DNA of 33,059 nucleotides from Deltaproteobacteria bacterium (GTDB taxonomy: Bacteria; Desulfobacterota; Desulfobaccia; Desulfobaccales; 0-14-0-80-60-11). The notes under the pieces are model-generated. The model did no database searches, was not told the DNA's origin, and was given only the letters and a program-made list of their open reading frames with translations. The position numbers were made by a program, and so were the translations under genes. Positions 5,758 through 19,264 of the stretch are shown piece by piece (within the stretch, counting starts at the first letter, position 1; each line of letters starts with the position of its first letter). The stretch is from the NCBI GenBank assembly GCA_037381685.1, contig JARRQO010000023.1, forward strand, positions 1 to 33,059, written 5' to 3'.

Positions 5758-7293
5758 TCACTTGGCTTCAGTCTCCAGCCGGGGGAACAGGGGTGGGCCC
5801 TGGGCCAGCTGGCTGCCGGGGACCAGCCTGCCCCAGGTGAGGACTTGGGGCAGAGGTTGATCCCACAGGGCCAGGCCCAGGCCCAACTGCTCGCTCATCT
5901 TGACGGCGCTGGCGGGCATAACCGGCTGCAGCAGCGCCGCGAGCCAACGCAGTGCTTCCAACAGGTGATACAAGACGGTATCCAGCCGCGCCGCCGCGTC
6001 AGGCTGCTTGGCCAACTCCCAGGGCGCGGAAGTGACGATATAGCGGTTGAGAAGACCGATAAATTCCCACAGCCCGGCCAGGGCCTTGGCAAACTCCAGG
6101 GCCGGAAACAGGCGCATAAACTCCGCGGCCATGGCTTGCACCGCAGTGACGACTTCCTGGTCCGGGGGCTCCGGCACATTGGGAGCCGGCACCACCCCTT
6201 GGCGGTATTTAAAGGCCATCCCCAGGCTGCGGGCCAAAAGGTTGCCCAAATCGTTGGCCAGATCGGCATTGATCCGGGCGGTTAAGGCCTCTTCGCTGAA
6301 ATGGGCGTCCAGCCCAAAAACCATCTCCCGGAGAAAGAAGTAACGGACCTGATCGAGGCCGAAGTTAGCCGCCAGGGTCCGGGGGTCCACTACGTTTCCC
6401 AGGCTTTTGGACATCTTGCCGGCCGCCATCTGCCAGTAGCCGTGAACGTTGAGGTTCCGAAAGGGGGCCACCCCCATGGCCTGCAACATGGTGGGCCAGT
6501 AAACGGCGTGAGGCTTGAGGATGTCCTTGGCGATGAGGTGCTGGGCAGGCCAATATTTCTTATAAGCCTCGCCCTCGGGGTAACCCAGACCCGTGAGGTA
6601 GTTGATCAGCGCGTCGAACCAGACGTAGGTGACGTAGCGCTCGTCAAAAGGCAGGGTGATCCCCCAATCCATGCGGCTTTTGGGCCGGGAGATGCACAGG
6701 TCTTCCAAGGGCTCCTTGAGGAAGGCCAGGATTTCGTTTTTATAGCGTTCCGGCCTGATCCAGTCGGGGTGGCGATGAATCCGGTCGATGAGCCAGTCCT
6801 GGTATTTGCTCATGCGGAAAAAGTAGTTTTCTTCCTTCAAAAAGGTGGGGGCCACTTTATGGTCCGGGCACAGGCCGTCCACCAGGTCCCGCTCCAGGTA
6901 AAAACATTCACAGCCGAAACAATAGAGTCCGCCGTACTCCCCGAAATAAATGTCCCCGGAATCGTGGACCCGGTTTAAGATTTCCTGCACCACCCGCACG
7001 TGCTCCGGGTCGGTGGTGCGGATGTAGTTGTCATAACTGATGTTCAACTCATCCCACGACTCCCGGAAGCGGGCGCTGATCCGGCTGGCGAAGTCCTTGA
7101 CCGGCAGGCCCGCGGCGGCCGCGGCGTCCAGCACTTTGTCGCCGTGCTCGTCAGTGCCGGTCTGAAACCGGACCTCCTCTCCCAGGAGGCGGTGAAAGCG
7201 GGCCAGGGCATCGGCCACCACCGTGGTGTAGGCATGGCCGATATGGGGCTCGGCGTTGACGTAATAGATGGGCGTGGTGATGTAATAAGCCAT
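5758..7293 (-). CDS. metG: Methionine--tRNA ligase (short form, no C-terminal Trbp111-like domain)
   Basis: ITTPIYYVNAEPHIGHAYT (HIGH motif), KMSKSLGN (KMSKS motif), CFGC...CPDH zinc knuckle. 511 aa. Confidence 0.95.
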   Translation of the reverse strand: MAYYITTPIYYVNAEPHIGHAYTTVVADALARFHRLLGEEVRFQTGTDEHGDKVLDAAAAAGLPVKDFASRISARFRESWDELNISYDNYIRTTDPEHVRVVQEILNRVHDSGDIYFGEYGGLYCFGCECFYLERDLVDGLCPDHKVAPTFLKEENYFFRMSKYQDWLIDRIHRHPDWIRPERYKNEILAFLKEPLEDLCISRPKSRMDWGITLPFDERYVTYVWFDALINYLTGLGYPEGEAYKKYWPAQHLIAKDILKPHAVYWPTMLQAMGVAPFRNLNVHGYWQMAAGKMSKSLGNVVDPRTLAANFGLDQVRYFFLREMVFGLDAHFSEEALTARINADLANDLGNLLARSLGMAFKYRQGVVPAPNVPEPPDQEVVTAVQAMAAEFMRLFPALEFAKALAGLWEFIGLLNRYIVTSAPWELAKQPDAAARLDTVLYHLLEALRWLAALLQPVMPASAVKMSEQLGLGLALWDQPLPQVLTWGRLVPGSQLAQGPPLFPRLETEAK

Positions 7294-7296
7294 AAT

Positions 7297-7354
7297 AGCA
7301 GTGAGCAGTGAGCAGTAAGCAGGCCGTTTAATGAAGGCATTACCAGCTGCTTAC
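7297..7354. repeat. Tandem heptamer (agcagtg agcagtg agcagta agcagg) plus 8-bp inverted repeat gtaagcag / ctgcttac, abutting the metG start codon
   Basis: Read directly. The array begins 4 nt from the metG ATG (7293). No SD is visible. Confidence 0.85.
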
Positions 7355-7365
7355 GGCCCGCTAAA

Positions 7366-8133
7366 TCATTTGCTTGCCTCCAGGGCTGCAATATGTGCCA
7401 GGGTCTCCTGGAGCAAGAGCGCGTCGGTTTCGGGGTTGCCGGTCTTTAAAAAGGTGCGGTACGCGGCCAGGGCCTCGTACTTGTAGCCCAGTTTTTCCAG
7501 AGCCCGGCCCCGGCTGTAAAAAGCCCGGGCATAAGTGGGCGCAAGGGCAATTATCTTGTCGGCGTCCGCCAGGGCCTGCTTCGGTTTGCCCAGGGCCAGG
7601 AAGGCCAGGCTCCGGTTGTAAAGGATTTTCGGCCCCTGGGGGCGCAGCTTCAAGGCCCGGTCATAGTCTTTGAGGGCGTGTTGGGGTTTATCCAGATCCA
7701 GGTAAGTGTTGCCCCGGTTATAGTAGATCTGCCAGTCCCTGGGGGCGTACTTCAAGGCCTGGGTGTAGTCGGCCAGGGCCTTATTAAGAGCGTTTTGGCG
7801 GCTGTAGGCCAGACCCCGGTTGTAGTAGGCCTCGGGAGAATGAGGGGCCAGATCCAGGGCCTGGTCGAAATCGCCCACCGCGTCGGCCCACAAATTCAGC
7901 CTCATCTCGGCAATGCCCCGGTTGATATAGGCCTCCACCATCTCCGGGTCGCTCTTGATGGCTGCGGTGAATTTCTCCCTAGCCAAAGTAGGGTTGCCCT
8001 GGCGTAAGGCCGCCACCCCCTGCTTAAAAGAGGCTTGGGCTCCAAGGTCTTCCTGGCTGCCCAGGGCCGGCCCCAGACAGAAACCCGTGACCGCCAAAAG
8101 AACAAAAATGATTAAGCCGCTTTTGCGTAACAC
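7366..8133 (-). CDS. TPR-repeat protein with N-terminal signal sequence
   Basis: Reiterated ~34-aa units (AYxNRGxAyxxLgxxxxAlxDyxxAlxLxP) appear about six times. Hydrophobic N-terminus. Confidence 0.8.
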   Translation of the reverse strand: MLRKSGLIIFVLLAVTGFCLGPALGSQEDLGAQASFKQGVAALRQGNPTLAREKFTAAIKSDPEMVEAYINRGIAEMRLNLWADAVGDFDQALDLAPHSPEAYYNRGLAYSRQNALNKALADYTQALKYAPRDWQIYYNRGNTYLDLDKPQHALKDYDRALKLRPQGPKILYNRSLAFLALGKPKQALADADKIIALAPTYARAFYSRGRALEKLGYKYEALAAYRTFLKTGNPETDALLLQETLAHIAALEASK

Positions 8134-8157
8134 TCTCTAAGGCCTCATTTCTCGGTT

Positions 8158-8180
8158 CTGTAGGGCGGGCCCTGCCCGCC
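8158..8180. repeat. 23-nt hairpin repeat CTGTAGGGCGGGC(C)CTGCCCGCC, copy 1
   Basis: 7-bp GC stem GGCGGGC/GCCCGCC with a 3-nt loop. 22/23 identical to the copy at 19269-19291. Confidence 0.9.
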
Positions 8181-8217
8181 ATGATTGCTTATCTTGAACA
8201 TGAGCCGGTTCGCCGCC

Positions 8218-8442
8218 TTACTCGCTGAACCGAGGCTGGGCGCCGGCCTCCCTCGAAGTTATTTTTCCCAGCAACTCCTGGACATCCTTCAAGGCTTCCC
8301 GGGTGGCTTCCCGGGACGCGACGAAATCGTACATCAAGTTATTTTCGTCGGCTTCGATGTACTCGCTATGTTTGATCATCATTTCCGCGCCCTGGACCAG
8401 CCGTCCCACAAAAAACATGAAATAGTGCAGATCGTCGGCCAT
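8218..8442 (-). CDS. Small hypothetical protein (74 aa)
   Basis: I trimmed the 127-aa ORF to the internal ATG at 8442 (MADDLHYFMFF...) so that it does not overlap the upstream YkgJ-type gene. No family recognised. Confidence 0.35.
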   Translation of the reverse strand: MADDLHYFMFFVGRLVQGAEMMIKHSEYIEADENNLMYDFVASREATREALKDVQELLGKITSREAGAQPRFSE

Positions 8443-8491
8443 AATGTGCCTTTGTGCGTGGCAGGGGGGCACCCCCCCTGGCAAAAGTCCT

Positions 8492-8920
8492 TTACTTTTC
8501 AGGCGACCCTCGGCGCCGGGCCTCTTCCACAAATTCTTCATGGGTGCAGTCCGGGTTGATCCCCGGGCAGGCGGTTTTGGCGTGCTCCAGTTCGTCTGCA
8601 TGCGCCAACAGGGCCGGAAGAAAGGGCCACTGACGGCAGATCCAGGGTTTCACCGGGTGCACCCGGCAGAGGTTGCCCTCCGACAAAAAAACGCAGAAGC
8701 CATTGTCAGCAACCGTAAGGCGCGGCCCCAGGGCCGAAGGCTCCACATAACGCCGGCAAAACTCCGGAACGGCCAAACCCAGGAGGGCCGCCATGTCTTC
8801 CACTTCCTGGGACTTGACCAGAATGCCCCCCCGGCCGCAGCAACAATCGCCGCACTGCTGACATTGGAAGACCGGGGTCCGGCCTGCGTTTAGGCTGGGA
8901 TCGGCAGCTTTCAGGGCCAT
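8492..8920 (-). CDS. YkgJ-family cysteine-cluster (zinc/iron-chelating, UPF0153) protein
   Basis: FQCQQCGDCCCGRGG N-terminal CxxCxxCC cluster. GFCVFL...LCRVHPVKPWICRQWPF second cluster, typical of this family. Confidence 0.7.
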   Translation of the reverse strand: MALKAADPSLNAGRTPVFQCQQCGDCCCGRGGILVKSQEVEDMAALLGLAVPEFCRRYVEPSALGPRLTVADNGFCVFLSEGNLCRVHPVKPWICRQWPFLPALLAHADELEHAKTACPGINPDCTHEEFVEEARRRGSPEK

Positions 8921-9016
8921 ATATCTTCCTAAAAAATCCTTCCGGGGCCTCCCCTATGAACAGTTTCGTCGGGCAGGCCCCACGCCCGCTCTTAAACGGA
9001 GCGCAAGATAACCGGC

Positions 9017-9125
9017 TTTGAACTTGAACTTGAGACCTGTGCGAAAGTCTCGTGTAGGACAGCCGCCCCCGGCTGTCCACCCTTGGGACCTGCGCAGAGG
9101 CCTCAAATCATAAACCCTGAAAACC
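9017..9125. repeat. Nested palindromic intergenic element (MITE/REP-like) with a central 9-bp-stem hairpin
   Basis: Arms ttgagacctgtgcgaaagtc (9030-9049) and gacctgcgcagaggcctcaa (9087-9106) are inverted. Centre ggacagccg-cccc-cggctgtcc (9057-9078). Left flank is the tandem ttgaac ttgaac. Confidence 0.8.
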
Positions 9126-9137
9126 GGTGTGACACCC

Positions 9138-10529
9138 TTACATCAGGCAGGCTTCACCCTCGACGTTTTTCAAGGGCGGCTGGCCGGTGGATTCGATCAC
9201 GCTGCGCCACAGCGGGGAATCCAGATCCACTTCATTGCGCCGGCCCACCGTGGCTGCGATGGGAATGTGGACGTAATGGCCGTGCCAGCGACTCACCAGC
9301 ATGGCGGTCTTGCCCGCCATCCCCGCGTGGACCGCGTTTTGCCCCAGAAAGCCGCAATAAATCCGGTCATTGTAGTTGGCCGGCATACTGCGGATCAGAT
9401 AACTGGGGTCGATATACTTCAGGTTGATTTCGCTGTTTTGTTGCTTGAAGTAATCTTTGATGGCGTACTGGAGAAAGTGCCCGATATTGCCGGGTTTGAG
9501 GTTGCCCGAAGGGTCCCGTTCCCGGTTTTCCTCGGTGAAATAACGTTGTCCGGCTCCCTCGGCCACCACGATCAGGGCATGATTGCGCTTCTGCAGACGG
9601 TATTCCAGGCTGGCTAACAAACCGCATTCGCCCTCCAGATCGAAGTCCGCCTCGGGAATCAAGGCATAATTGACCTCCCGCAAGGCCAAAGTGGCATTGG
9701 CCGCAATGAAGCCGGAAAAGCGGCCCATGAGTTTCACCAGGCCGATGCCGTTGGGCGCGCCCACCGCTTCGGTATGGGCCGCATGGATGGCTTCGGTGGC
9801 CACTTCCACCGCGGTATCAAACCCGAACGACCGGCTTACCAGGGGTATGTCGTTGTCGATGGTCTTGGGAATTACAATAATCCCGATGCGCAGCTCCCGG
9901 CGGGCAATCTCCCGGCAAATCTCCGCGGCCGCCCTCAAGGTGCCGTCGCCCCCGATGAGGAACAAAATCCGGATGTTGATGCGATCCAGCGCATCCACGA
10001 TCTCCGCGGTGACCTGGGGCCCCCGGGAGCTGGACAGGATCGTGCCTCCGAAGGTATGGATGTTGGCCACACATTCCGGGATGAGGTCCAGCAAGTCATG
10101 GCCGTATTTGGGAATGAACCCCTGAAAACCGTAGCGGACCCCATAAATATGCCGCACCCCGTAAAGGTGATAAAGTTCGAGAACAATGGCCCGGATGACG
10201 TCGTTGGTGCCGGGGCACAAGCCGCCGCAAGTGACGATGGCGCAATGAACCTTGGAAGGATCAAAGTAGATGGTCGACCGGGGCCCGGCCATCTCCAGGG
10301 TGAGAGGGGCCTTGCCCTGCAGGCTTTGCCAATACTCCAGCGAATCATGGACCAGGACCCGATCCGTATCCTCGACATAAGACCTCTTAATTACCTGGCC
10401 ATGCCGGTCCACCATGGAATATTCCCGGATAGGGGATTTTACCTTGGGCTCTCCCAAAGAGGGAATCTCGGTCTCAAAATCCTCAAATTGCAATGGCGAG
10501 CCTTCTCCTTTGGGCTTTTTTGCCATCAT
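9138..10529 (-). CDS. pfk: 6-phosphofructokinase (long PfkA-family form; GGDG motif suggests ATP dependence)
   Basis: AIVTCGGLCPGTNDVIR, FLIGGDGTLRAA, IPKTIDNDI and MGR motifs of phosphofructokinase. Gly rather than Asp in GGDG. 463 aa. Confidence 0.9.
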   Translation of the reverse strand: MMAKKPKGEGSPLQFEDFETEIPSLGEPKVKSPIREYSMVDRHGQVIKRSYVEDTDRVLVHDSLEYWQSLQGKAPLTLEMAGPRSTIYFDPSKVHCAIVTCGGLCPGTNDVIRAIVLELYHLYGVRHIYGVRYGFQGFIPKYGHDLLDLIPECVANIHTFGGTILSSSRGPQVTAEIVDALDRINIRILFLIGGDGTLRAAAEICREIARRELRIGIIVIPKTIDNDIPLVSRSFGFDTAVEVATEAIHAAHTEAVGAPNGIGLVKLMGRFSGFIAANATLALREVNYALIPEADFDLEGECGLLASLEYRLQKRNHALIVVAEGAGQRYFTEENRERDPSGNLKPGNIGHFLQYAIKDYFKQQNSEINLKYIDPSYLIRSMPANYNDRIYCGFLGQNAVHAGMAGKTAMLVSRWHGHYVHIPIAATVGRRNEVDLDSPLWRSVIESTGQPPLKNVEGEACLM

Positions 10530-10640
10530 GGCCCCCCTTTTTCAAGCCTCTTTGTGATAAACGTTCGGCGCCGGTTCACGGGCCGGCATTTTTGGGAATC
10601 TATCTTAAACTTTTCCCGTGCGGGAATACAAGGGCCAAAT

Positions 10641-11699
10641 CTACCAGGTTTGGGTCATCGCCTCCATCTCATCTTTCAGTTCCCGGGCCATTAACTTTTT
10701 TACGGCTTCCTTGGGTGCCAGGCCTTCATAGAGGATCTTGTAAGATGCGGTCACCAGGGGCATTTCCACCCCCAGGCGCTGCGCCAGGGCATATACGGCC
10801 CGGGAAGTCTTCACCCCTTCCGCCACCATGGCCATGCCGGTGAGAATCTGGTCCAGAGAAACGCCCTGCCCCAGCTTCATGCCGACCTGAAAATTGCGGC
10901 TCTGGGTGCTGGTGCAGGTGAGGATCAGGTCTCCCAAGCCGGCCAGGCCCGTGAGGGTCATGGGGTTGGCGCCGAGCCGCGCCCCCAGCCGAACCATTTC
11001 GGCCAGCCCCCGGGTGATGAGCGCCGCCCGGGGATTATCCCCCAGGCCCATGCCTGAAATTATCCCGGTGCCAATGGCAAAGATGTTTTTCAGCGCCCCT
11101 CCCAGCTCCACACCGGTAACGTCGTGGGAGGTGTAGACCCGAAAGTAGGGGGCGGAAAAGGTGCGTTGCAGAAAGTGGGCGATGTCCCGCTGCCGGCAGG
11201 CAATGGTCACCGCGGTGGGCTGTTTCTGGACCACTTCCCGGGCAAAACTGGGACCGGACAGCACCGCGTAAGGCGTCTCCGCCCCCATTTCCTCCCGCAC
11301 CACCCCTTCCATGGTGAGAAGCGAATCGATCTCCATGCCCTTGGTGGCGCTGATCAGCACTGCGCCGGCCGGCCAGTACCGCACCAGATCGCGCCCCACC
11401 TGCCGGAAGCCGTGAGAGGGCACCACCATAAGGATCATCCCGGCCCCGTTTAGGGCCTCGGGAAATTCCCGGGTGAAGCGAATCCGGGAGGACAGACGCA
11501 CCCCGGGCAAAAAGGTTTGGTTGATCCGTTCCCGGCTCAGGACTTCATAGACCTCGGGCTCCCTGACCCAAAGGCGGACGGTTAGTCCCTTTTCCGCCAA
11601 AAGCTGCGCCAGCGCGGTGCCCCAACTGCCGGCGCCGATTACGGCAATGGTTTTGGCCTCAGGAGATTCCAAGTTTGGATTCAACCTCGCCGTTACCAT
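10641..11699 (-). CDS. gpsA: NAD(P)H-dependent glycerol-3-phosphate dehydrogenase
   Basis: [14 protein letters not shown] Rossmann motif. [13 protein letters not shown] and [11 protein letters not shown] motifs. The ATG at 11699 overlaps the gyrA 3' end by 41 nt; an internal TTG (about 11672) is an alternative start. Confidence 0.9.
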
Positions 11700-13998
11700 T
11701 TTTTTCCGCCACCTTGGCTACACTTACCACCTTCTCTTCCGCCTCCAGGTCCATGAGCTTAACTCCCTGGGTGACCCGGCCGATCAAAGATATGCCTTGG
11801 GCCAGCATGCGCAAAATTTTACCACCATCGGTGACCAGCATGATTTCATCATCGCCGAACACTTGGAGGATGCTCATAATGGGGCCGTTGCGTTTGGTAA
11901 TATCCAGCCCCTTGACCCCCTGGCCGCCCCGGTGGTGCTCCGGATACTTCTTCGGGTCAGTGCGCTTGCCAAAGCCCCGTTCCGTCACCGTGAGGATGGT
12001 GCCCCCGGTACGTAACACTTCCATGCCCACCACCCGGTCCTCGGGGAGCACTTCCATGCCCTTGACTCCTCGGGCGATGCGGCCCATGTCCCGGACCTCC
12101 GACGACGCGAAGCGAATAATCTTGCCCAACTTGGTGCCCATCAGGATACTCTGCTCAGGTTCACTCATTCTAACGCTCACCAGTTCGTCCTCGGCGTCCA
12201 GGCTAATGGCAATAATGCCGCCGCTGCGAGGCCGTTGGAAGTTGGTCAGCTCGGTTTTCTTGATGGTCCCCCGCCGGGTGGCCATTACCACGGATACTCC
12301 CGGGTTAAATTCCCGCACCGACAGGATGGTGGCCAATTTTTCGCCTTCTCCCAACTGCAGCAGGTTGACGATGGCCTTGCCTTGAGCCGAAGGCGAGCCG
12401 ACGGGAATTTCGTGGACCTTCAGCCAAAACACCCGGCCTTTGCTGGTGAACACCAGAAAATAGTTGTGGGTGGAGGCGATGTACAGTTGGGAAACGAAAT
12501 CGTTTTCCCGGGTAACCATGCCCATGCGGCCTTTACCGCCCCGGCGCTGACTGCGGTAAATGGTCAGGGGGGTGCGCTTGATGTAACCCCGATGGCTGAT
12601 GGTCACCACCATCTCTTCATCGGCGATCAGGTCTTCCGCGGTGATATCCTGGGCCTGAGGCACGATATCGGTGCGCCGCTCGTCACCGTAGCGTTCCTTC
12701 AATTCAGTCAATTCCTGGGCGATGAGGGCCTTGACTTCGGTCTCTTCCGCCAGAATCCGGCGCAACCGGGCCATGTTCTCGGCCACCGCCTGGGCCTCCT
12801 GCACGATCTTTTGGCGTTCCATCCCCGTGAGTCGCTGCAACCGCATATCCAAAATGGCCTGGGCCTGAGTCTCGGACAGAGCATAGCGGCTCCGGGTTTC
12901 CTCCAAACTGAGGATATCCGGGGCCTCCTGGATGAACATACCGGCCATCAACTGCTGCTTGGCTTCCGGGGGATTGGCTGCGGCCCGGATAAGATCGATG
13001 ACCTGGTCCAGAAAATCCAGGGCAATGAGCAGGCCGTCCAGAATATGGGCCCGGGCCTCCGCCTGCTTCAACTCATAACGGGTGCGCCGGAGGATCACTT
13101 CCCGGCGGTGCTCCAGAAAATGCTGCAGCAGGTCCTTGAGGCTTAACAATTCCGGCCGGTTGTGGACGATGGCCACCAGATTGATGCCAAAGGTGACCTG
13201 CATCTGCGTGTGGAGATATAGCTGGTTCAGGATGGGTTGCGGCAGTTCATCCTTTTTGAGGAGGATCGCCACCCGCAGGCCTTCCCGGTCCGATTCATCC
13301 CGGATATCGGAGATGCCTTCCACCTTCTTGTCTTTCACCAACTCGGCGATGCGCTCAATCAGCCGGGCCTTGTTCACCTGATAGGGCAGCTCCCGGATAA
13401 TCAGGCTTTCCCGGCCACCTTTGCGCTCCACCGTCACCTTGGCCCGGAGGCGGATGAGCCCCCGGCCGGTGCGATAGGCCTCGGCAATGCCTTCGGCCCC
13501 GTAAATAAAGGCTCCGGTGGGGAAATCCGGCCCCGGCAGGATGGCCATCAGTTTTTCCAGGCTAATCTCCGGATTTTTGAGGCTGGCCAGGAGCGCGTCG
13601 CAAACCTCGCCCAGGTTATGGGGCGGGATGTTGGTGGCCATGCCCACGGCAATGCCCGAGCCCCCGTTGACCAGCAGGTTCGGCAGGCGGGTGGGCAGCA
13701 CCAGCGGCTCTTTGAGGGAGCCGTCGTAGTTGCCCACGAAATCCACCGTGTCTTTGTCCAGGTCCTGGAGCAGCTCGTGGGCCAGCCGGGTTAGCCTAAC
13801 CTCGGTGTAACGCATGGCCGCGGGCGCATCCCCGTCAATGGACCCGAAGTTGCCCTGGCCGTCCACCAGCGGATAGCGCAGGGAAAAGTCCTGGGCCATG
13901 CGCACGATGGCGTCATAGACCGCGGTGTCATCCTCAATGTTGATAGGTACCGCGTGTGCTTCCATCATATTGAATAGACTCTGTTGTTTGTTGTCCAT
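11659..13998 (-). CDS. gyrA: DNA gyrase subunit A homologue with an in-frame loss of the conserved N-terminal block (possibly defective, chimeric, or an assembly artefact)
   Basis: [45 protein letters not shown] (catalytic Tyr), [23 protein letters not shown], and a C-terminal beta-pinwheel with repeated G-rich blades. The N-terminus reads [24 protein letters not shown] directly fused to the GyrA residue-82 equivalent. No SD precedes the ATG. Confidence 0.85.
13934..13992. repeat. 59-bp direct repeat, copy A (equals the first ~22 codons of the gyrA ORF)
   Basis: tcaatgttgataggtaccgCgtgtgcttccatcatAttgaatagactctgttgtttgtt. Two mismatches to copy B. Weaker homology continues to the ATG at 13998. 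Confidence 0.95.
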
Positions 13999-14000
13999 TT

Positions 14001-14047
14001 TCTGTATTTATCTGCGTCCATCTGCGGCTTTAAATCTCAACCGCCGA
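14001..14047. repeat. CGCAGATG-type leader motif, degenerate copy immediately 5' of the gyrA start codon
   Basis: Minus strand: ccatcggcggttgagatttaaagccgcagatggacgcagataaatacagaaaATG. It aligns with the MNT leader (..tctgcggttaaatgaaagcgcagatgggcgcagatgaatacaga..). Confidence 0.85.
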
Positions 14048-14078
14048 TGGACCGGGATTAGCTTATTAACTGCTGCTC

Positions 14079-14101
14079 GTTCCCAAGCCCAACTTGGGAA
14101 C
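14079..14101 (-). terminator. Stem-loop gttcccaag-cccaa-cttgggaac 18 nt downstream of the hicA stop (no U-tract)
   Basis: Perfect 9-bp stem read from the sequence. The lack of a T-run makes intrinsic-terminator function uncertain. Confidence 0.3.
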
Positions 14102-14118
14102 CAGGGGGAAATCAGTAA

Positions 14119-14340
14119 CTACAATTCAAATTCACTCCGTGGAATCCCAGACTGTCGAATAATTGATTGCAGCGTTCCTATTCTAAGTTCGGCATGATCA
14201 ACAACTGGAATAGTAATCGTACTGCCCGGAACCATCTTCTGCATAAGAAGATGGCTGCCTCGCTGGCGAACTTCTTTGAATCCGTGATTCGATAAGATTC
14301 GGCAGACCTCTTTGCCGGAAAGAACGCGAAGTTTACCCAA
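14119..14340 (-). CDS. hicA: HicA-family mRNA interferase toxin (type II TA)
   Basis: MGKLRVLSGKEVCRILSNHGFKEVRQRGSHLLM matches the HicA/YcfA pattern (SGKE...GF...RQxGSH). TTG start with GAGG 7 nt upstream. 8-nt overlap with hicB. Confidence 0.85.
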   Translation of the reverse strand: MGKLRVLSGKEVCRILSNHGFKEVRQRGSHLLMQKMVPGSTITIPVVDHAELRIGTLQSIIRQSGIPRSEFEL

Positions 14341-14554
14341 CCGCTACCTCAACCTGGGTAATATAGACCTCTTCCCGGAGACGGTCTTTAATCTCCTCTT
14401 TAGATGCTGTCTCAAAAAACAGTTCCAAGGCTTCCTGGAGATTTTTCCGCGCTGCCTCGATGGTATCTCCCTGGCTGGCTATATCAAGTTCCGGACACAG
14501 AGATACATAGCCATTGCCTTCCCGTTCAATGATGGCGGTAAGTTGGCGCTTCAT
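14333..14554 (-). CDS. hicB: HicB-family antitoxin (short, UPF0150-type, no obvious DNA-binding extension)
   Basis: TAIIEREGNGYVSLCPELDIASQGDTIEAARKNLQEALELFFE is the typical HicB partial-RNase-H-fold core. GGAG RBS. Translationally coupled to hicA. Confidence 0.75.
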   Translation of the reverse strand: MKRQLTAIIEREGNGYVSLCPELDIASQGDTIEAARKNLQEALELFFETASKEEIKDRLREEVYITQVEVAVG

Positions 14555-14676
14555 GGTTTCTCCGATCTAATTTGCTGGTTTCTTTGCCCTCGGATAACCC
14601 ACAAGGCCATGCGAGTAGTCTTAACATAGTCTCTTTCCAATCTTTACCTGGAGGAATATTTCACTTTTTAGACTCT

Positions 14677-14735
14677 TCAATGTTGATAGGTACCGTGTGT
14701 GCTTCCATCATGTTGAATAGACTCTGTTGTTTGTT
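14677..14735. repeat. 59-bp direct repeat, copy B (between the ATPase stop and the hicB start)
   Basis: tcaatgttgataggtaccgTgtgtgcttccatcatGttgaatagactctgttgtttgtt. Minus-strand reading is ..[28 protein letters not shown]. It has CTG in place of the ATG and a 6-nt indel relative to copy A. Confidence 0.95.
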
Positions 14736-14780
14736 TGAAATGTCCAGGGTTGATCACCTAATATTTATATCAGCAATTAA

Positions 14781-16613
14781 TTAATTGGTGAAAGAAGAGA
14801 AGTGTTCAAATATTTCAATAACTTCTGCGAAGACACCAAAATCTTGCTTCTCTGCTTCACGGAGATAAAGCATCTTTAATCGGCCTATATCGAGTCTTGC
14901 TTGGGAAGCGAAGATTTTTATTATTTGGCGACCAGGAATTAGGTATTTCCAAAGATTATTTCCGTCCGCAAGGCTATTTTCCAATACTTGGAATTTTTCA
15001 GCAACAACTTGATTTATTATGCTTGCGTCAAGTTCACTGGTAATGCGCCCCTGCTCTTCGGAAGCTCGTCCTGAAATCAAATCTAATAACTCTTCTTTCG
15101 ATCGTTTATGGCAATCCTTGGCCATTAAATCAATATTACCGGCCTGCTGCCGGAAGATTGTGGAAACTTGTAGGGAAACTGCATAAGAAATAGTACTACG
15201 CGCGATCTCGCGAAGTCTTTTTAGAATTTCTTCCGGCGAAATTAGCCAAGATTCCTCAGATTCCATCTGAGAGAAAATTTGAGCTAGGATTTGCTCATCA
15301 AGGAAGTAATTTTCCAAATGATATCTTGGAAGTACACGGAAACGATCAAGAGCTCTGCTTCCTTCTAGCGGCTCTGAAGGTGAGGAAGGCGAGGTATCAC
15401 CATCACAAAGCATAAAAAAATCAACACCCCAAATTGTTTTCTCAAGTACCTGGGAAGATATTGTAGAAAAAGAGATGATGGTTGCCTTTCCTCCACTGGG
15501 AACTAAAACCAAGTTTGGAAATTTGTTTTTTATGATTGAGCCATAAACTAACTTGTCAAGACTGGCGTTCGTCCCTTCAATGAGCACTATACGCCTTCCT
15601 AATGCTACTATCCCTATAGATTGACCAAGTAAACGCAATGCTTGGTTTGTTTCATCATCCGAAGTAACAAGAATGGCTTGATTGGTCCCGGAATCATTGG
15701 GAGGAGCGATAAAAATCACGGAATGTTCAAGTGAAGCTGTAATGATGTCTGGAGAATGTGTGCAAAAGATAAATTGGTTTTTTTCCCCTATAGTTTCCAG
15801 AGTTCTCATTAGCTTAAAACTTAATTCAGGGTGCAAGTGCAATTCTGGTTCATCAAAAATCACAATGCTGTGAGAGGGTCTCCTGAGAAGGAAGTCAAAA
15901 ACGATGTTTACTACTTCCTGCTCACCGGAGCTAAGAGTTGTAACAGGAAATTGTTTTCCCTCGCATGCATAATCGAGGTGAGTCTTTTTTAAATCAGGGC
16001 TTAACAATTCCTTTGGTGAGAGGAGCTGACTGAAAGCCCGCTTAAATGGTTCTAAAGGGTCCTTGAAATTTAATTCCATGGAAGTCTCGCCTTGGAGCAT
16101 AAGCTCCTCGGCTTTTTTAGCAATACGGTCTCTTTGGCTCTGGACTTTGCGAAAAATTGAATGCAAGGTGTCTTGGAAGCGAGATTTAAGTCCTTCAAAT
16201 GTTGTATTCCAACCAATATTCTCTTCATATGGATCTTTAATATCCCATGAGAATTTGAAGGGAGTGATCTTCTGTATTGAACGGTCGCTTTCGAAGTTAA
16301 TTATACTGCTCCTCCATTTTGTCCGAAGGCGACCTTTGTGCAGAATGCCCTGGAGCCTCAATGCATCCTTTGGATCGCTAGTATCAATTTCCTTCTTGCC
16401 CCAATCCTTGATTTCTTCAGCAGTGGTCGCATGAATGACAAGCTGTATATTTTTCCTCGAAGTTGGATTCTGAAAATAATAAAGTAGGGCTTGTGCCAAT
16501 CGTGTCTTGCCTACCCCGTTCGGACCAGCAAGCACAATAATATTTGATAGCTCACCTGCTTCAAAACTTTTGATAGGTGGAACGTCTTTTACTGAGATAT
16601 GCGTTAATCGCAT
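14781..16613 (-). CDS. ABC-type (SMC/RecF-like, AAA_15/21-type) ATPase fused to a DUF4435/TOPRIM-like C-terminal module; OLD-family / single-polypeptide PARIS (AriA-AriB)-like candidate defence protein
   Basis: Walker A VLAGPNGVGKT; signature LSSGEQ; Walker B/D-loop IVIFDEPELHLHP; H-loop FCTHSP. C-terminal half has RRIVLIEGTNASLDK, VLVPSGGK, FFMLCDGD and LPRYHLENYFLD (Glu / DxD / ENY pattern of TOPRIM-like DUF4435). About 40% GC against a roughly 60% GC host. Confidence 0.7.
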   Translation of the reverse strand: MRLTHISVKDVPPIKSFEAGELSNIIVLAGPNGVGKTRLAQALLYYFQNPTSRKNIQLVIHATTAEEIKDWGKKEIDTSDPKDALRLQGILHKGRLRTKWRSSIINFESDRSIQKITPFKFSWDIKDPYEENIGWNTTFEGLKSRFQDTLHSIFRKVQSQRDRIAKKAEELMLQGETSMELNFKDPLEPFKRAFSQLLSPKELLSPDLKKTHLDYACEGKQFPVTTLSSGEQEVVNIVFDFLLRRPSHSIVIFDEPELHLHPELSFKLMRTLETIGEKNQFIFCTHSPDIITASLEHSVIFIAPPNDSGTNQAILVTSDDETNQALRLLGQSIGIVALGRRIVLIEGTNASLDKLVYGSIIKNKFPNLVLVPSGGKATIISFSTISSQVLEKTIWGVDFFMLCDGDTSPSSPSEPLEGSRALDRFRVLPRYHLENYFLDEQILAQIFSQMESEESWLISPEEILKRLREIARSTISYAVSLQVSTIFRQQAGNIDLMAKDCHKRSKEELLDLISGRASEEQGRITSELDASIINQVVAEKFQVLENSLADGNNLWKYLIPGRQIIKIFASQARLDIGRLKMLYLREAEKQDFGVFAEVIEIFEHFSSFTN

Positions 16614-16635
16614 TCTAAATTATCCTCTGGAAAAT

Positions 16636-16941
16636 CTAAGCGGCATACACAACCTCTTTGGTCGTCAAGATATTATGACGCCGAAACGGATTGCGAATAG
16701 CATCTTTTTCTACCAAGTCGACTTCATGGCCCAAAATTGCCGCCAGCTCATCCGACATCTCCACCCGGTTATCGAACATGATTCCTCCATCCGGTTCAAA
16801 AGTCACCAGCACATCCACATCACTATCAGTCCGAAAATCATCCCGCAGCACCGACCCGAACAGCGCCAATTCTTTGATCTTCCAGCGACGGCAGAAGTCT
16901 TCGATCTGCTTTAAGGGAATATTAATTTTGGCTTGAGGCAT
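16636..16941 (-). CDS. Minimal nucleotidyltransferase (MNT / MntA-like, Pol-beta superfamily) lacking an adjacent HEPN partner
   Basis: LALFGSVLRDDFRTDSDVDVLVTF is the GSx(10)DxD signature of MNT antitoxins. 101 aa. The stop lies 22 nt upstream of the ATPase start, which has its own GAGGA RBS. Confidence 0.85.
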   Translation of the reverse strand: MPQAKINIPLKQIEDFCRRWKIKELALFGSVLRDDFRTDSDVDVLVTFEPDGGIMFDNRVEMSDELAAILGHEVDLVEKDAIRNPFRRHNILTTKEVVYAA

Positions 16942-16961
16942 TTTTAGCTTAATCTGTATTC

Positions 16962-17007
16962 ATCTGCGCCCATCTGCGCTTTCATTTAACCGCAGATTAA
17001 CGCAGAT
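16962..17007. repeat. Double-stem hairpin ATCTGCG-ccc-ATCTGCG-(12 nt)-CGCAGAT-taa-CGCAGAT between the GxxExxY stop and the MNT start
   Basis: Read directly: two 7-nt arms are repeated on each side and are perfectly complementary. Located 3' of the GxxExxY gene and 5' of the MNT gene on the minus strand. Confidence 0.9.
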
Positions 17008-17026
17008 AAGAGCTGATAAACACGGA

Positions 17027-17422
17027 TTAATAATTATTCACAATACGCCTGATTTCCGCCTTGGGCCTGCCAAAATTAACCAGCAAACACACTGAAAGAT
17101 CAGTAGCCCTAAGATAATTCAAGCACTGGGCCATATGCACCTCATCCAAGGCCCTGGCTACCTTTAACTCTATAAGAACCTTGTCCTCGACTAACAAATC
17201 TGCAGCAAACTCCCCCACGACCATCGTATCGTATCTAACCTGAATGCCATATTGCTGCTTGGCCTCCAACCCGTTTTTTCTGAGTTCCAGCGCTAACGCA
17301 TTTTCATAAACCTTCTCCAAAAATCCACTTCCCAACGTATTACTTACCTTATAAACACAACCAATAATCCTTTCCGTAATACTATTCAAATCTAATCTAT
17401 ATTCATCCTTATTCATCTGCAT
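17027..17422 (-). CDS. GxxExxY family protein (PD-(D/E)XK-like small protein)
   Basis: GSGFLEKVYENALALEL (GxxExxY motif), ADLLVEDKVLIELKV, and the CLLVNFG C-terminal motif of the family. The start codon is embedded in a decamer tandem repeat. Confidence 0.85.
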   Translation of the reverse strand: MQMNKDEYRLDLNSITERIIGCVYKVSNTLGSGFLEKVYENALALELRKNGLEAKQQYGIQVRYDTMVVGEFAADLLVEDKVLIELKVARALDEVHMAQCLNYLRATDLSVCLLVNFGRPKAEIRRIVNNY

Positions 17423-17452
17423 TCATCTGCGTCCATCTGCGTTCATCTGCGG
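17401..17452. repeat. Tandem decamer array (about 5 units of rttcatctgc on the + strand, i.e. GCAGATGAAY on the minus strand)
   Basis: attcatcctt|attcatctgc|attcatctgc|gtccatctgc|gttcatctgc|gg. It covers the GxxExxY start codon and its first codons (MQMNKDE), and it fills most of the 43-nt gap to the LivK-like stop codon. Confidence 0.9.
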
Positions 17453-17465
17453 TTAAATTATTTTT

Positions 17466-18581
17466 TTACGGCTTCATCGTCGTCAGATATACAAACTTCC
17501 CTTTCTCCACTTTGATGATGGTCACGTCCTTGATGGGATTGTGGTTCGGCCCCATGGTAATGGTGCCCGTCACCCCGGGAAAATCTTTAGTCGCGGCCAG
17601 GGCCCCCGCCACCTTGACCCCAGCGGTGCTGCCGGCCTGGGCCATGGCTGCGGTCAAAAGGAAATAGCTGTCGCCGCCCAGGGCCGCAAAGCCGGACAGG
17701 GGTTTGTGGTACTTGGCCTCATAGGCCTGCATGAATTTTTTCCCCAGCTTCGTGTTGGCGCCCTGACGGTGAAAGAGCGCGGTGAAGTACATGCCGTTCA
17801 CCGCGGGCCCGCCGATGCTGAGCAGTTCCGGCACCTGGGCCCCGTCTCCGGTTAAAATCGGGGTTTTGACCCCCAACTCCTTAAGCTGCTTGGCCAACAG
17901 CGCATCTTCAGTGTAGTAATTCGGCGCGTAGATGAGATCGGGCTTGGCCGCCTTCAGGGCCGAAATCTGGGCGCTGAAATCCTGGTCGCCGGTCTGGATA
18001 TAGCTGACGGAAACAATCTGGCCGCCCAGGCGCTTGAATTCCTCCATAAAATACTTGGCCAGGCCGACGCAGTAATCCTGGGCCTGGTCGATGAGCACCG
18101 CCACCCGCCGGGCTTTCAGGTTTTTATAGGCGAACCGGGCCGCCACTTTGCCCTGCAGGTCATCCACATACGCGGCCCGAAAGGCGTATTTCCGGTTCTG
18201 GGTCACCAGGGGATTGGTGGCGGTGGGAGTGATATTGGGAATCTTGGCCCGCTCGGCGATGGGCACCCCGGCCAGGGTATCGCTGCTGATCACCTCGCCG
18301 ATGATGGCCGCCACGTGATCCTGCTCAATGAGACGGCTCACCGCATTGGCCGCCTCTATGCGGTCGCTGCGGGTGTCCAGCATCACCAGCTTGATGGGCT
18401 GCCCCAACACCCGGGGTTCCAGCTTGTGGGCCACCTGAACGCCTTCCCACACCATCTGCCCCATGGCCGCGGCCGGCCCGGTCATGGGGAGATAGAGCCC
18501 GATTTTGACAACAGCCGCGGCCGGAGCCGCCAGGATCAGCAACAGGCCGGCAACCAGAAAGAACTGTTTAATTAGTCGCAT
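17466..18581 (-). CDS. ABC transporter substrate-binding protein, branched-chain amino acid (LivJ/LivK, type 1 PBP) family
   Basis: Signal peptide followed by KIGLYLPMTGPAAAMG. Overall Leu/Ile/Val-binding-protein-like pattern. No permease or ATPase genes adjacent. Confidence 0.85.
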   Translation of the reverse strand: MRLIKQFFLVAGLLLILAAPAAAVVKIGLYLPMTGPAAAMGQMVWEGVQVAHKLEPRVLGQPIKLVMLDTRSDRIEAANAVSRLIEQDHVAAIIGEVISSDTLAGVPIAERAKIPNITPTATNPLVTQNRKYAFRAAYVDDLQGKVAARFAYKNLKARRVAVLIDQAQDYCVGLAKYFMEEFKRLGGQIVSVSYIQTGDQDFSAQISALKAAKPDLIYAPNYYTEDALLAKQLKELGVKTPILTGDGAQVPELLSIGGPAVNGMYFTALFHRQGANTKLGKKFMQAYEAKYHKPLSGFAALGGDSYFLLTAAMAQAGSTAGVKVAGALAATKDFPGVTGTITMGPNHNPIKDVTIIKVEKGKFVYLTTMKP

Positions 18582-18699
18582 TCCTCGGGAAACCTATCGA
18601 GTATCGGGCAAAAAAGGCGCACAGGGGATAAGGCGTCCGGCAAATAAGCAGGATTTCTGTGGGCGGCCTTTCCTTTTCCCCCAAAAGTCTTTTCCAGGC

Positions 18700-18728
18700 T
18701 TGTTCCCCCCCGTTATCGTTACTATAAT
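18700..18728 (+). promoter_or_regulatory. Candidate sigma70-type promoter TTGTTC-17 nt-TATAAT for the gene at 18782
   Basis: TTGTTC at 18700-18705, a 17-nt spacer, and a perfect TATAAT at 18723-18728, about 54 nt upstream of the ATG. Sequence-pattern prediction only. Confidence 0.4.
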
Positions 18729-18781
18729 AGCAGAAAAAACCGGCGCCGGGAAGGAATTCCGGCCAGGGTGGCGAGGTTGTC

Positions 18782-19264
18782 ATGGAATTGCAACTGGAAA
18801 AGCTCATCATTCCCGAAGGGGCCAACCTCATTTTGGGCCAGAGCCATTTTATCAAGACCGTGGAAGATCTGTACGAAATTCTGGTGGGGGCCGCGCCCGG
18901 CATCAAATTCGGGTTGGCCTTTTCCGAGGCCTCCGGCGATTGCCTCATCCGCACCGAGGGCAACACCCCGGAGCTGGTGGAGGCGGCCATCGAAAACGCC
19001 CGGCGCCTGGCCGCGGGCCACACCTTCAATATTCTCCTGAAAGACGCCTTTCCCATCAACGTGCTCAACGCCGTCAAACTCTGCCCCGAGGTCTGCCGCA
19101 TCTTCTGCGCTACCGCCAATCCCGTGGAAGCCGTCCTGGTCCAGAGCGACTTGGGCCGGGGCATCCTGGGCGTGGTGGACGGCTTCTCCCCCAAGGGCGT
19201 GGAAGACGACGCCGGCCGCGCCTGGCGCCAGGATATCCTGCGGAAATTCGGCTATAAAAAGTAA
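18782..19264 (+). CDS. Adenosine-specific kinase family protein (PF04008-like)
   Basis: GQSHFIKTVEDLYE...PGIKFGLAFSEASG...GHTFNILLKDAFPINVLNA...ATANPVEAV resembles this small conserved family. GAGG RBS. Predicted promoter upstream. Confidence 0.7.
   Translation: MELQLEKLIIPEGANLILGQSHFIKTVEDLYEILVGAAPGIKFGLAFSEASGDCLIRTEGNTPELVEAAIENARRLAAGHTFNILLKDAFPINVLNAVKLCPEVCRIFCATANPVEAVLVQSDLGRGILGVVDGFSPKGVEDDAGRAWRQDILRKFGYKK

Follow-up and report, generated by a model that had tools for sequence, protein, structure and literature searches.

The hicB-hicA cassette in the window (the whole stretch of 33,059 nucleotides analysed here) is enclosed by a 62-nt direct repeat, and this repeat is an ordinary recombination scar. 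Copy A, which is joined to the gene body, is the 5' end of the resident gyrA. As shown by the comparison of sequences, the lineage of the window carries two versions of the locus in tandem, version X and then version Y, with the gyrA of X cut at nucleotide +68. Copy B is an orphaned gyrA 5' stub, because the gyrA of X ends at +68 and is joined to Y near the position of the stop codon of the gene for a periplasmic substrate-binding protein (SBP). The gyrA of the window also lacks 66 codons. This deletion is a separate and later event than the duplication, and is private to this contig. The features are listed in Table 1.

Table 1. Features from gyrA to the SBP gene, in window coordinates.
Feature	Position	Strand	Evidence or remark
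gyrA, 779-codon open frame without 66 codons (E. coli residues ~16-80)	11659..13998	-	PDB phmmer
J2, deletion junction, ATTGAGGATGA joined to CACCGCG	13927..13930	-	198 bp found in all relatives are absent here
Copy A, native gyrA leader and 5' end joined to the gene body	13931..13992	-	81-93% identity to the single gyrA 5' end in ~40 relatives' loci
Leader A, one of two types of sequence upstream of gyrA in relatives	13993..14075	-	Resembles the upstream sequence of L001 and L003
Conserved hairpin, CTGGTTCCCAAG-N5-CTTGGGAACGAG	14076..14104	-	Edge of the hot spot on the gyrA side
hicB (14333-14554) and hicA (14119-14340), toxin-antitoxin cassette	14119..14554	-	Pfam
Pre-hicB spacer	14555..14673	-	Homologous to the SBP-hicB spacer of hicBA-type relatives, from 11 nt after their SBP stop
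J1, illegitimate junction, ATCAACATTGA (AGA) GTCTAAAAAG	14674..14676	-	gyrA +68 joined to the pre-hicB spacer
Copy B, orphaned gyrA 5' stub	14674..14735	-	Collinear with AriAB - leader B - intact gyrA of L044, L045 and L049
Leader B (AGGTGATCAACCCTGGAC...), second native type of gyrA upstream sequence	14736..14780	-	Matches relatives
Fused PARIS-type AriAB defence ATPase-nuclease (predicted), ~40% GC	14781..16613	-	PADLOC AriAB, Pfam AAA_21/AAA_15
MNT-type nucleotidyltransferase antitoxin	16636-16941	-	Same cassette in many relatives
PDDEXK_3 protein	17027-17422	-	Same cassette in many relatives
SBP gene	17466..18581	-	Fixed left boundary of the hot spot at its stop codon

The direct repeat and the native gyrA 5' end

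According to the repeat search of the window, copies A and B are identical at 59 of 62 positions (95%), and hicB-hicA lies between them. Exactly two copies were detected with three mismatches allowed, and shuffled sequences are expected to give 0.00. When a 6-nt gap is introduced, the homology reaches TGGAC further, to ATGGAC in copy A and CTGGAC in copy B. The 681-bp segment between the copies (13993-14673) contains hicB, hicA, the hairpin and a second palindrome. The direct repeat that the original prediction described around hicBA is thus confirmed as a 62-nt sequence, and its translations of both copies are correct. Copy B consists of leader B and gyrA nucleotides 1-68, after which it is truncated. 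The reading frame through copy B (14661-14747) has 28 residues. The true start of gyrA is likely ATGATG at 13968, because L003 has an in-frame TGA ahead of the upstream codons.

The gyrA 5' block is found as a single copy with 81-93% DNA identity in the loci of about 40 Desulfobaccales relatives. In each of the 36 loci long enough to show it, the block continues into an intact N-terminal block. Neither a second 5' copy nor a deletion was detected by pattern scans of one genome locus and 37 metagenome loci. The GC content of the repeat is ~40%. The same block has a mean GC content of 47% in 42 relatives' loci, and the next 1.1 kb of gyrA has 64% (21 loci). The low GC content of the repeat is a native property of this part of gyrA. 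The AT-richness pointed out in the original prediction is therefore real, whereas the foreign island origin drawn from it does not hold, since the block is low in GC in the relatives too.

Leader B matches the sequence just before intact gyrA in seven relatives (L008, L009, L015, L024, L027, L044 and L049). Leader A holds a palindrome at 14016-14052 made of CGCAGATGGA-type decamers, and decamer palindromes also sit between some cassettes. In about 20 relatives, among them L010 with its empty site, the conserved hairpin precedes gyrA by 74-194 nt. The GTTCCCAAG hairpin occurs once or twice beside gyrA and not after each cassette. It was considered as an attC-like mark of each cassette and rejected, because it is a fixed gyrA-adjacent feature that is present in the empty site. 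In an integron cassette array each cassette would have an attC-type imperfect palindrome behind it, and an IntI gene may be present; no IntI gene was found among the island proteins. The motif GAGTCTA, located in the gyrA leader and at the start of the hicBA cassette, was rejected as a general cassette-boundary site, since it occurs only in those two places. An Rfam search of 13000-18800 gave no match. A Type IIS (GGATG) cut site and a small GGATgaaATCC hairpin at the junction were also weighed, and both were dropped as numerology.

The hot spot and the two parental arrangements

In this Desulfobaccales clade, the gap between the SBP stop codon and gyrA was shown to be a hot spot that takes up small cassettes of toxin-antitoxin and defence genes. 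The gap ranges from 146 nt in L010 to 3.5 kb. L010 provides the empty site for which a search among relatives' gyrA loci had been proposed. The haplotypes part right at the SBP stop codon, and the contents vary, with PDDEXK_3, MNT(-HepT), hicBA and PARIS AriAB in differing combinations. In the window, HicA matches Pfam HicA_toxin (E=1e-16). HicB resembles UPF0150 weakly, below the Pfam cutoff (E=4e-4), and the two genes overlap by 8 nt. With a HicA toxin domain, a small HicB-like neighbour and overlapping genes, the cassette fits a HicAB type II toxin-antitoxin system. AriAB matches the PADLOC profile AriAB PDLC02981 over residues 165-574 (E=9.7e-55), and AAA_21 and AAA_15 over residues 25-291. 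The fused form of PARIS consists of an ABC-type ATPase and a TOPRIM/DUF4435 nuclease. By the AriAB profile and the ATPase matches, the protein may be assigned to this fused form; its nuclease domain is predicted from the AriAB profile.

Version X (...AriAB - leader B - intact gyrA) is found in L044-L049, and the AriAB of these relatives is 88% or 69% identical to that of the window. Version Y (SBP stop - hicB - hicA - hairpin - leader - intact gyrA) is found in L008, L015, L024 and L027. The same hicBA cassette (HicB 89-97% identical) is located directly before intact gyrA in these four relatives and in L009, and each of the five has one gyrA 5' copy. At J1 (junction sequence ATCAACATTGAAGAGTCTAAAAAG), gyrA position +68 meets the point 11 nt past the SBP stop codon of version Y with a 3-nt microhomology, AGA. 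The pre-hicB homology begins exactly at J1.

A sister contig, L043 (JGI sample 3300076654), differs from the window by 11 SNPs across 3,736 bp (99.65% identity). J1 is the same in this contig, both repeat copies are present, and copy A runs into intact gyrA codons 24-52. At the point of J2, L043 reads on as GATGAAATCCGCAAGTCC..., and the contig stops at +156, within the segment missing from the window. The window and L043 may share a study and a pipeline, so the independence of L043 is limited to its different sample and strain. Because L043 has the duplication together with intact gyrA, the duplication is real and the deletion is separate from it.

Proposed origin of the tandem arrangement

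The overall reading, that X and Y were stacked by homology-facilitated illegitimate recombination and that the deletion was separate and later, is quite probable. Version X DNA would come in, anchored by homology in the SBP gene, and the far end of the incoming X, inside gyrA, would be joined illegitimately just beyond the anchor. This would call for linear DNA taken up by transformation or conjugation and for a one-sided, RecA-dependent anchor. X would thereby be added and hicBA kept; selection would act against losing a toxin-antitoxin pair. The direction could be either way, X into a Y-type genome or Y into an X-type genome. Several features are consistent with this mechanism. The gyrA fragment lies beside a kept older module, the two parental arrangements occur separately in relatives, and J1 has a short microhomology close to the end of the homologous anchor. 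The view of the repeat as a recombination footprint is accordingly supported. The same kind of mechanism was proposed for orphan-module arrays at Vibrio T6SS and rhs loci (PMC5361080).

As in the rhs/CDI toxin tips and the Vibrio T6SS effector-immunity arrays (PMC5361080), a new module is placed beside a conserved gene and the older one is retained. What is left of the conserved gene is likewise a stub that forms a short direct repeat, each parental arrangement is found by itself in relatives, no integrase is present, and the junction has a short microhomology. The locus differs from these arrays in that the conserved gene is the essential housekeeping gene gyrA, which left its 5' end as the stub, where the arrays have the 3' core of a toxin gene. 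Its modules belong to toxin-antitoxin and defence systems, and a single stub is seen without an array. The fixed flanks (the SBP gene and gyrA), the empty site in a relative and the variable low-GC content (hicBA, MNT/HepT, PDDEXK_3 and PARIS AriAB) resemble the defence and toxin-antitoxin islands at core-gene hot spots. What sets the locus apart from such islands is the very small size of the hot spot (0.15-3.5 kb), its place directly before gyrA, and a rearrangement end inside the core gene. Integrative elements with att sites in tRNA or protein genes also leave a direct repeat of a gene end around the inserted DNA. In contrast to those elements, no recombinase is present, other genomes with the same cassette at the same place have no repeat, and the sequences upstream of the two copies differ.

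What looked like an exotic gyrA fusion or attachment site can thus be read as a record of the growth of a small hot spot for defence and toxin-antitoxin genes. A new module would have been gained through an illegitimate join ending in the adjoining essential gene, and the older hicBA and a working gyrA would have been kept. With both parental arrangements and the empty site known, the locus would be a clean natural case of accretion, not replacement, at a hot spot.

The gyrA deletion and alternative readings

Window GyrA residues 23-767 align to E. coli GyrA 81-843 in the PDB phmmer search; the GyrA proteins of relatives have 835-847 residues and 80-87% identity. The loss of 66 codons (198 bp) is in frame and directly follows copy A. 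The INIE...HPHGD spacing is fixed at 67 residues in 118 of the 118 relatives with both motifs locatable among the best 120 homologues listed, and the window alone is without the segment. J2 is located at about 13928/13927, with a 2-nt microhomology and no Ns. The junction reads ATTGAGGATGACACCGCGG, and the intact equivalent reads ATTGAGGATGAAATCCGC. The 756 remaining codons are intact and in frame, and AAMRYTE is present. In functional GyrA, a complete N-terminal winged-helix region (E. coli ~16-80) precedes the QRDR helix and Tyr122, and this region is needed for DNA cleavage according to the established gyrase structure. The complete region is absent from the window GyrA, whose alignment begins at E. 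coli residue 81. Judged from the sequence, the 198-bp deletion takes away the greater part of the winged-helix DNA-binding region, and the essential gene would be inactive as a result.

The missing segment includes the part of gyrA most conserved between species (93-96% identity). The 66 codons were not found elsewhere in the window by tblastn. LIPVHRRLRF, located just upstream of copy A, was considered as a missing piece of gyrA and rejected, because it comes from the GTCCATCGGCG decamer motif, which is also upstream of gyrA in relatives. A homologue search with GyrA residues 24-323 gave no same-species fragment of at least 98% identity with the missing segment. No record in the searched collection is an exact protein match to GyrA, SBP or AriAB of the window. 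The other core genes of the window have no indel of at least 6 residues against relatives beyond a single pairwise comparison.

On balance, the deletion is somewhat better explained as an assembly or consensus error, or as a non-viable minority molecule, than as a fixed allele. A real deletion, tied mechanistically to the repeat or to a fragile site, is doubtful though conceivable. In that case gyrA +66 to +73 would be prone to breaks, or copy B would serve as an ectopic repair partner, the broken end being trimmed to the end of the A/B homology and joined by microhomology to the resected end at +272. J1 (+65 to +68) and J2 (+71 to +73) are two illegitimate junctions only 3-8 nt apart. The repeat edge and the deletion junction, described earlier as coincident, therefore nearly coincide, at gyrA +68 and at +71 to +73. 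If the two events were independent, the chance of such closeness would be roughly 0.4%, and the stacking of X and Y leaves it unexplained. A 2-nt microhomology without Ns, as found at J2, is typical of in vivo illegitimate recombination and not of a normal de Bruijn-graph mis-join. The contig is otherwise clean, and the rest of gyrA is in frame. Against a real deletion, the lost region is the one needed for cleavage, the locus is the syntenic gyrA locus and the only one as far as seen, the near-identical strain L043 has the intact sequence, and no other deletion allele is present among the best 120 homologues listed. For such an allele to last, the cell would have to be polyploid or have a second gyrA, or the allele would have to be a minority variant. 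It is very unlikely that gyrA +66 to +73 is a recurrent break or recombination site used twice, at J1 and J2, and that the in-frame deletion is a real, maintained allele. If that were true, polyploidy or another gyrase gene could make the allele tolerable, or the product could be a cleavage-dead GyrA decoy in a defence island. The deletion in this contig needs a read-level check before annotation or interpretation.

For the duplication itself, the original prediction was that an AT-rich leader with 23 codons, borne by the island, had been joined to gyrA at codon ~82, and that the insertion of hicBA then duplicated or reused this module. The low GC content and the repeat edge near the deletion junction would fit it. 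However, all relatives have this module as their native gyrA 5' end, in single copy, low in GC and running into a complete N-terminal block, which is the finding that the original prediction itself named as its refutation. In L043 the duplication occurs beside an intact gyrA, and the leader in front of copy B is native to it, in the collinear order of the AriAB-gyrA relatives. The proposal is almost certainly wrong. It is scarcely credible that hicBA is a mobile element integrating site-specifically into the gyrA 5' end, with the repeats as attachment sites or as a target-site duplication. The direct repeats do enclose exactly hicBA and its spacers, and the conservation of hicB between lineages (95%) exceeds that of the core genes. 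Nevertheless, none of the five island proteins (HicA, HicB, AriAB, MNT and PDDEXK_3) matches a recombinase or transposase family, only one gyrA 5' copy is present in each of the five relatives that carry this cassette before gyrA, and the two copies in the window bear different native leaders. The target-site duplication of a transposon is short and exact (2-14 bp) and is accompanied by terminal inverted repeats and a transposase. Neither of the latter was found, and a 62-nt repeat of 95% identity far exceeds such a duplication. The attachment footprint once suggested is not borne out, since hicBA relatives have the cassette at the same place without a second copy and no integrase is present; integrase or attachment-site logic plays no part in the duplication. 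It is highly improbable that the assembly set haplotypes X and Y of two co-occurring strains in tandem by mistake. The metagenome is rich in strains, and the Y segment covers almost exactly the haplotype-variable region, from SBP stop +11 to gyrA +73. However, no k-mer path could make J1 with its 3-nt overlap, and the same junction recurs in L043, which differs by 11 SNPs and represents another sample and another strain.

Origin of the direct repeat

A repeat search of the window detected a 62-nt direct repeat identical at 59 of 62 positions. Copy A is joined to the gyrA body, and copy B is located beyond hicBA. These are the only two copies, versus none expected by chance in a search allowing three mismatches. 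When a 6-nt gap is allowed, the similarity reaches further across TGGAC; here copy A has ATGGAC and copy B CTGGAC. The segment between the copies is 681 bp.

Features of the window around the repeat
Feature	Position	Strand	Remark
gyrA	11659–13998	minus	779-codon frame
Copy A	13931–13992		joined to gyrA body
Second palindrome	14016–14052		between the copies; built from CGCAGATGGA-type decamers
Hairpin	14076–14104		between the copies
hicA	14119–14340	minus	between the copies
hicB	14333–14554	minus	between the copies
Copy B	14674–14735		beyond hicBA
610-aa ATPase	14781–16613	minus	fused PARIS AriAB (PADLOC E = 1e-54)
MNT-type antitoxin	16636–16941	minus	nucleotidyltransferase

Homology of the window gyrA product to solved GyrA structures begins at residue 23, corresponding to E. 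coli residue 81; the original prediction had described both the repeat and this gap accurately. The nearest GyrA proteins (80–87% identical, 835–847 aa) come from metagenome bins of Desulfobaccales and other Thermodesulfobacteriota. Their N-termini consist of M(NEKQPSLFT), a 19-residue block and then ...HPHGDTAVYD, and the 23-residue N-terminal block of the window product is followed directly by DTAVYD. As the nearest proteins start alike, the window block is the ordinary GyrA N-terminus of the clade. The 66 codons (198 bp) after the block are missing from the window gyrA. The INIE-to-HPHGD spacing is constant in all 118 relatives with both motifs locatable among the best 120 matches listed.

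In roughly 40 loci of relatives, a lone gyrA 5' end shares 81–93% DNA identity with the block, and the block continues into intact gyrA in 36 of the 36 loci that reach far enough. In relatives the block averages 47% GC, and the next 1.1 kb of gyrA 64%; the low GC is, by this comparison, native. The original prediction of an AT-rich module brought by the island is thus refuted, since the block is the native gyrA 5' end in relatives with low GC there too, and the proposed fusion at codon 82 is not supported. Nor is the repeat supported as an attachment site, as no recombinase was found among the island proteins.

In two relatives' loci (L003 and L004), an in-frame TGA is located ahead of AAT AAA CAA CAG. 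Thus the true gyrA start is probably ATGATG (13968) rather than the annotated ATGGAC, and some 30 nt of the repeat would then belong to the 5' UTR. In L003 (9971–10000) and L004 the TGA lies immediately 5' of the conserved AATAAACAACAG block (window 13968–13998), and this block is therefore likely to be a conserved 5' UTR.

Parental arrangements and the duplication

In relatives, the gene order is periplasmic substrate-binding protein (SBP) gene, variable segment, gyrA, gpsA and pfk. The window matches this order, with each of these genes on the minus strand. The variable segment starts at the SBP stop codon, where the haplotypes split exactly; its shortest form, the effectively empty one of L010, measures 146 nt, and its longest, in the window, 3.5 kb. 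It contains PDDEXK_3, MNT or MNT-HepT, hicBA and the AriAB ATPase in differing combinations. Its GC content is 37–49% (about 40% for the AriAB gene), and that of the flanks about 60%.

Two parental arrangements are found. In version X (L044–L049), the SBP gene is followed by AriAB (88% or 69% identical to that of the window), about 64 nt and intact gyrA. In version Y (L008, L024 and L027, and L015 behind one extra cassette), the SBP stop codon is followed by TTTTCATGGAGAGAGTCTAAAAAGG..., hicB, hicA, the hairpin, the leader and intact gyrA. HicB of the hicBA-carrying relatives is 89–97% identical to that of the window. In the window, the stretch between the AriAB stop codon and the end of copy B is collinear with version X (TTAGGTGATC...CTGGACAYTTCAAACAAACAACAGAG...ATCAACATTGA). 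At ATTGA[AGA]GTCTAAAAAG the window switches from X-like sequence into the version Y pre-hicB spacer. This junction, J1 (14674–14676), is 11 nt past the site of the version Y SBP stop codon and has 3-nt microhomology. Thus copy B is the truncated 5' end of the version X gyrA, and copy A, with a different native leader type, the 5' end of the resident gyrA. Both parental arrangements sit in tandem in the window.

An independent 3,814-bp contig of JGI sample 3300076654 (L043) is 99.65% identical to window 17656–13922, from which it differs by 11 SNPs. Its structure is the same (PDDEXK_3, MNT, AriAB, copy B, hicBA, copy A), and its J1 is identical. Past copy A it reads ATTGAGGATGAAATCCGCAAGTCCTACCTGGAG..., corresponding to intact gyrA codons 24–52, and then ends. 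These results indicate that the duplication is real and exists without the gyrA deletion.

Microhomology is short both at J1 (3 nt) and at the deletion junction J2 (2 nt). The duplication fits homology-facilitated illegitimate recombination. Homology within the SBP gene would anchor one DNA end, and an illegitimate join just past this anchor would attach the other. Orphan-module arrays of Vibrio T6SS clusters and rhs loci are proposed to arise in this way (PMC5361080). The opposite direction, in which version Y DNA entered an X genome anchored in gyrA, may instead have operated, as it yields the same product. Retention of hicBA would be expected, speculatively, if recombinants losing the toxin-antitoxin pair are counter-selected. 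The repeat is real, and the native gyrA 5' end is its source: it is an orphaned stub, left as a scar when cassettes accreted in a toxin-antitoxin/defence hot spot; the kind of event is already known, and the place is new.

The gyrA deletion

J2 (about 13927–13930) reads ATTGAGGATGA|CACCGCG, and relatives read ...CACGGCGA|CACC. The deletion is private to the window contig and unconfirmed. The deleted segment corresponds to E. coli GyrA residues ~16–80. These residues precede the QRDR helix and make up a large part of the winged-helix DNA-binding domain, and a GyrA lacking them is predicted to be unable to cleave DNA.

We lean towards the deletion being an artefact or a non-viable minority molecule. 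Three points weigh against its being a fixed, viable allele: it sits at the syntenic gyrA locus, the gyrA 5' pattern occurs once in the sole related reference genome containing it, and the near-identical L043 is intact. Two features suggest a spot prone to assembly problems: the most conserved between-species stretch of gyrA (93–96% identity, exact runs with a median of 50 nt) lies in the missing segment, and L043 also breaks within this segment, at +156. However, a 2-nt junction without Ns is atypical of a de Bruijn mis-join, and the deletion is in frame. A real deletion is the less probable reading, with a substantial chance nonetheless. Beyond a single pairwise comparison, no indel of at least 6 residues against relatives was found in the other core genes of the window; thus the contig is otherwise clean.

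J1 (+65 to +68) and J2 (+71 to +73) are 3–8 nt apart, a coincidence of roughly 0.4% if the events were independent. This proximity could stem from faulty assembly at the edge of the repeat, from an aborted ectopic repair in which a broken end was trimmed back to where the A/B homology ends, or from a fragile site.

JGI sample 3300076654 also contains a second contig, L050, which begins inside gyrA and matches window 6320–12047 at 99.93% identity. The gyrA of this species is divided between contig ends in the sample, at L043 3814 (gyrA +156) and L050 1 (window 12047).

Other features of the hot spot

Comparison of window 13999–17465 with loci L001–L049 shows the SBP–gyrA gap to be a hot spot for cassettes that is hypervariable throughout this Desulfobaccales clade. 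The MNT-type antitoxin of the window has no HepT partner, and AriAB begins 22 nt after it. As relatives including L002, L009 and L012 hold overlapping MNT-HepT pairs, the HepT toxin gene of the window may have been displaced. The hicB DNA (14300–14600) is 93–95% identical to L009 and L027, whereas core genes are only 80–90% identical, which suggests recent horizontal exchange of the hicBA cassette inside the clade. L009 retains hicB and has lost hicA.

There are 7 occurrences of the decamer CGCMGATGRA, where 0.31 would be expected. Four tandem copies just past the SBP stop codon extend into the PDDEXK_3 start (17412–17451), inverted pairs lie between PDDEXK_3 and MNT (16959–17007), and the palindrome immediately upstream of copy A has a 12-bp stem. 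Related decamers occupy the same places in relatives. The hairpin, CTCGTTCCCAAG-N3-5-CTTGGGAACGAG, is conserved in about 20 relatives, where it lies 74–194 nt upstream of gyrA. It is missing from the AriAB-type arrangement, sometimes duplicated, and present in the empty site L010. Its role may be that of a terminator-like insulator or of a regulatory site.
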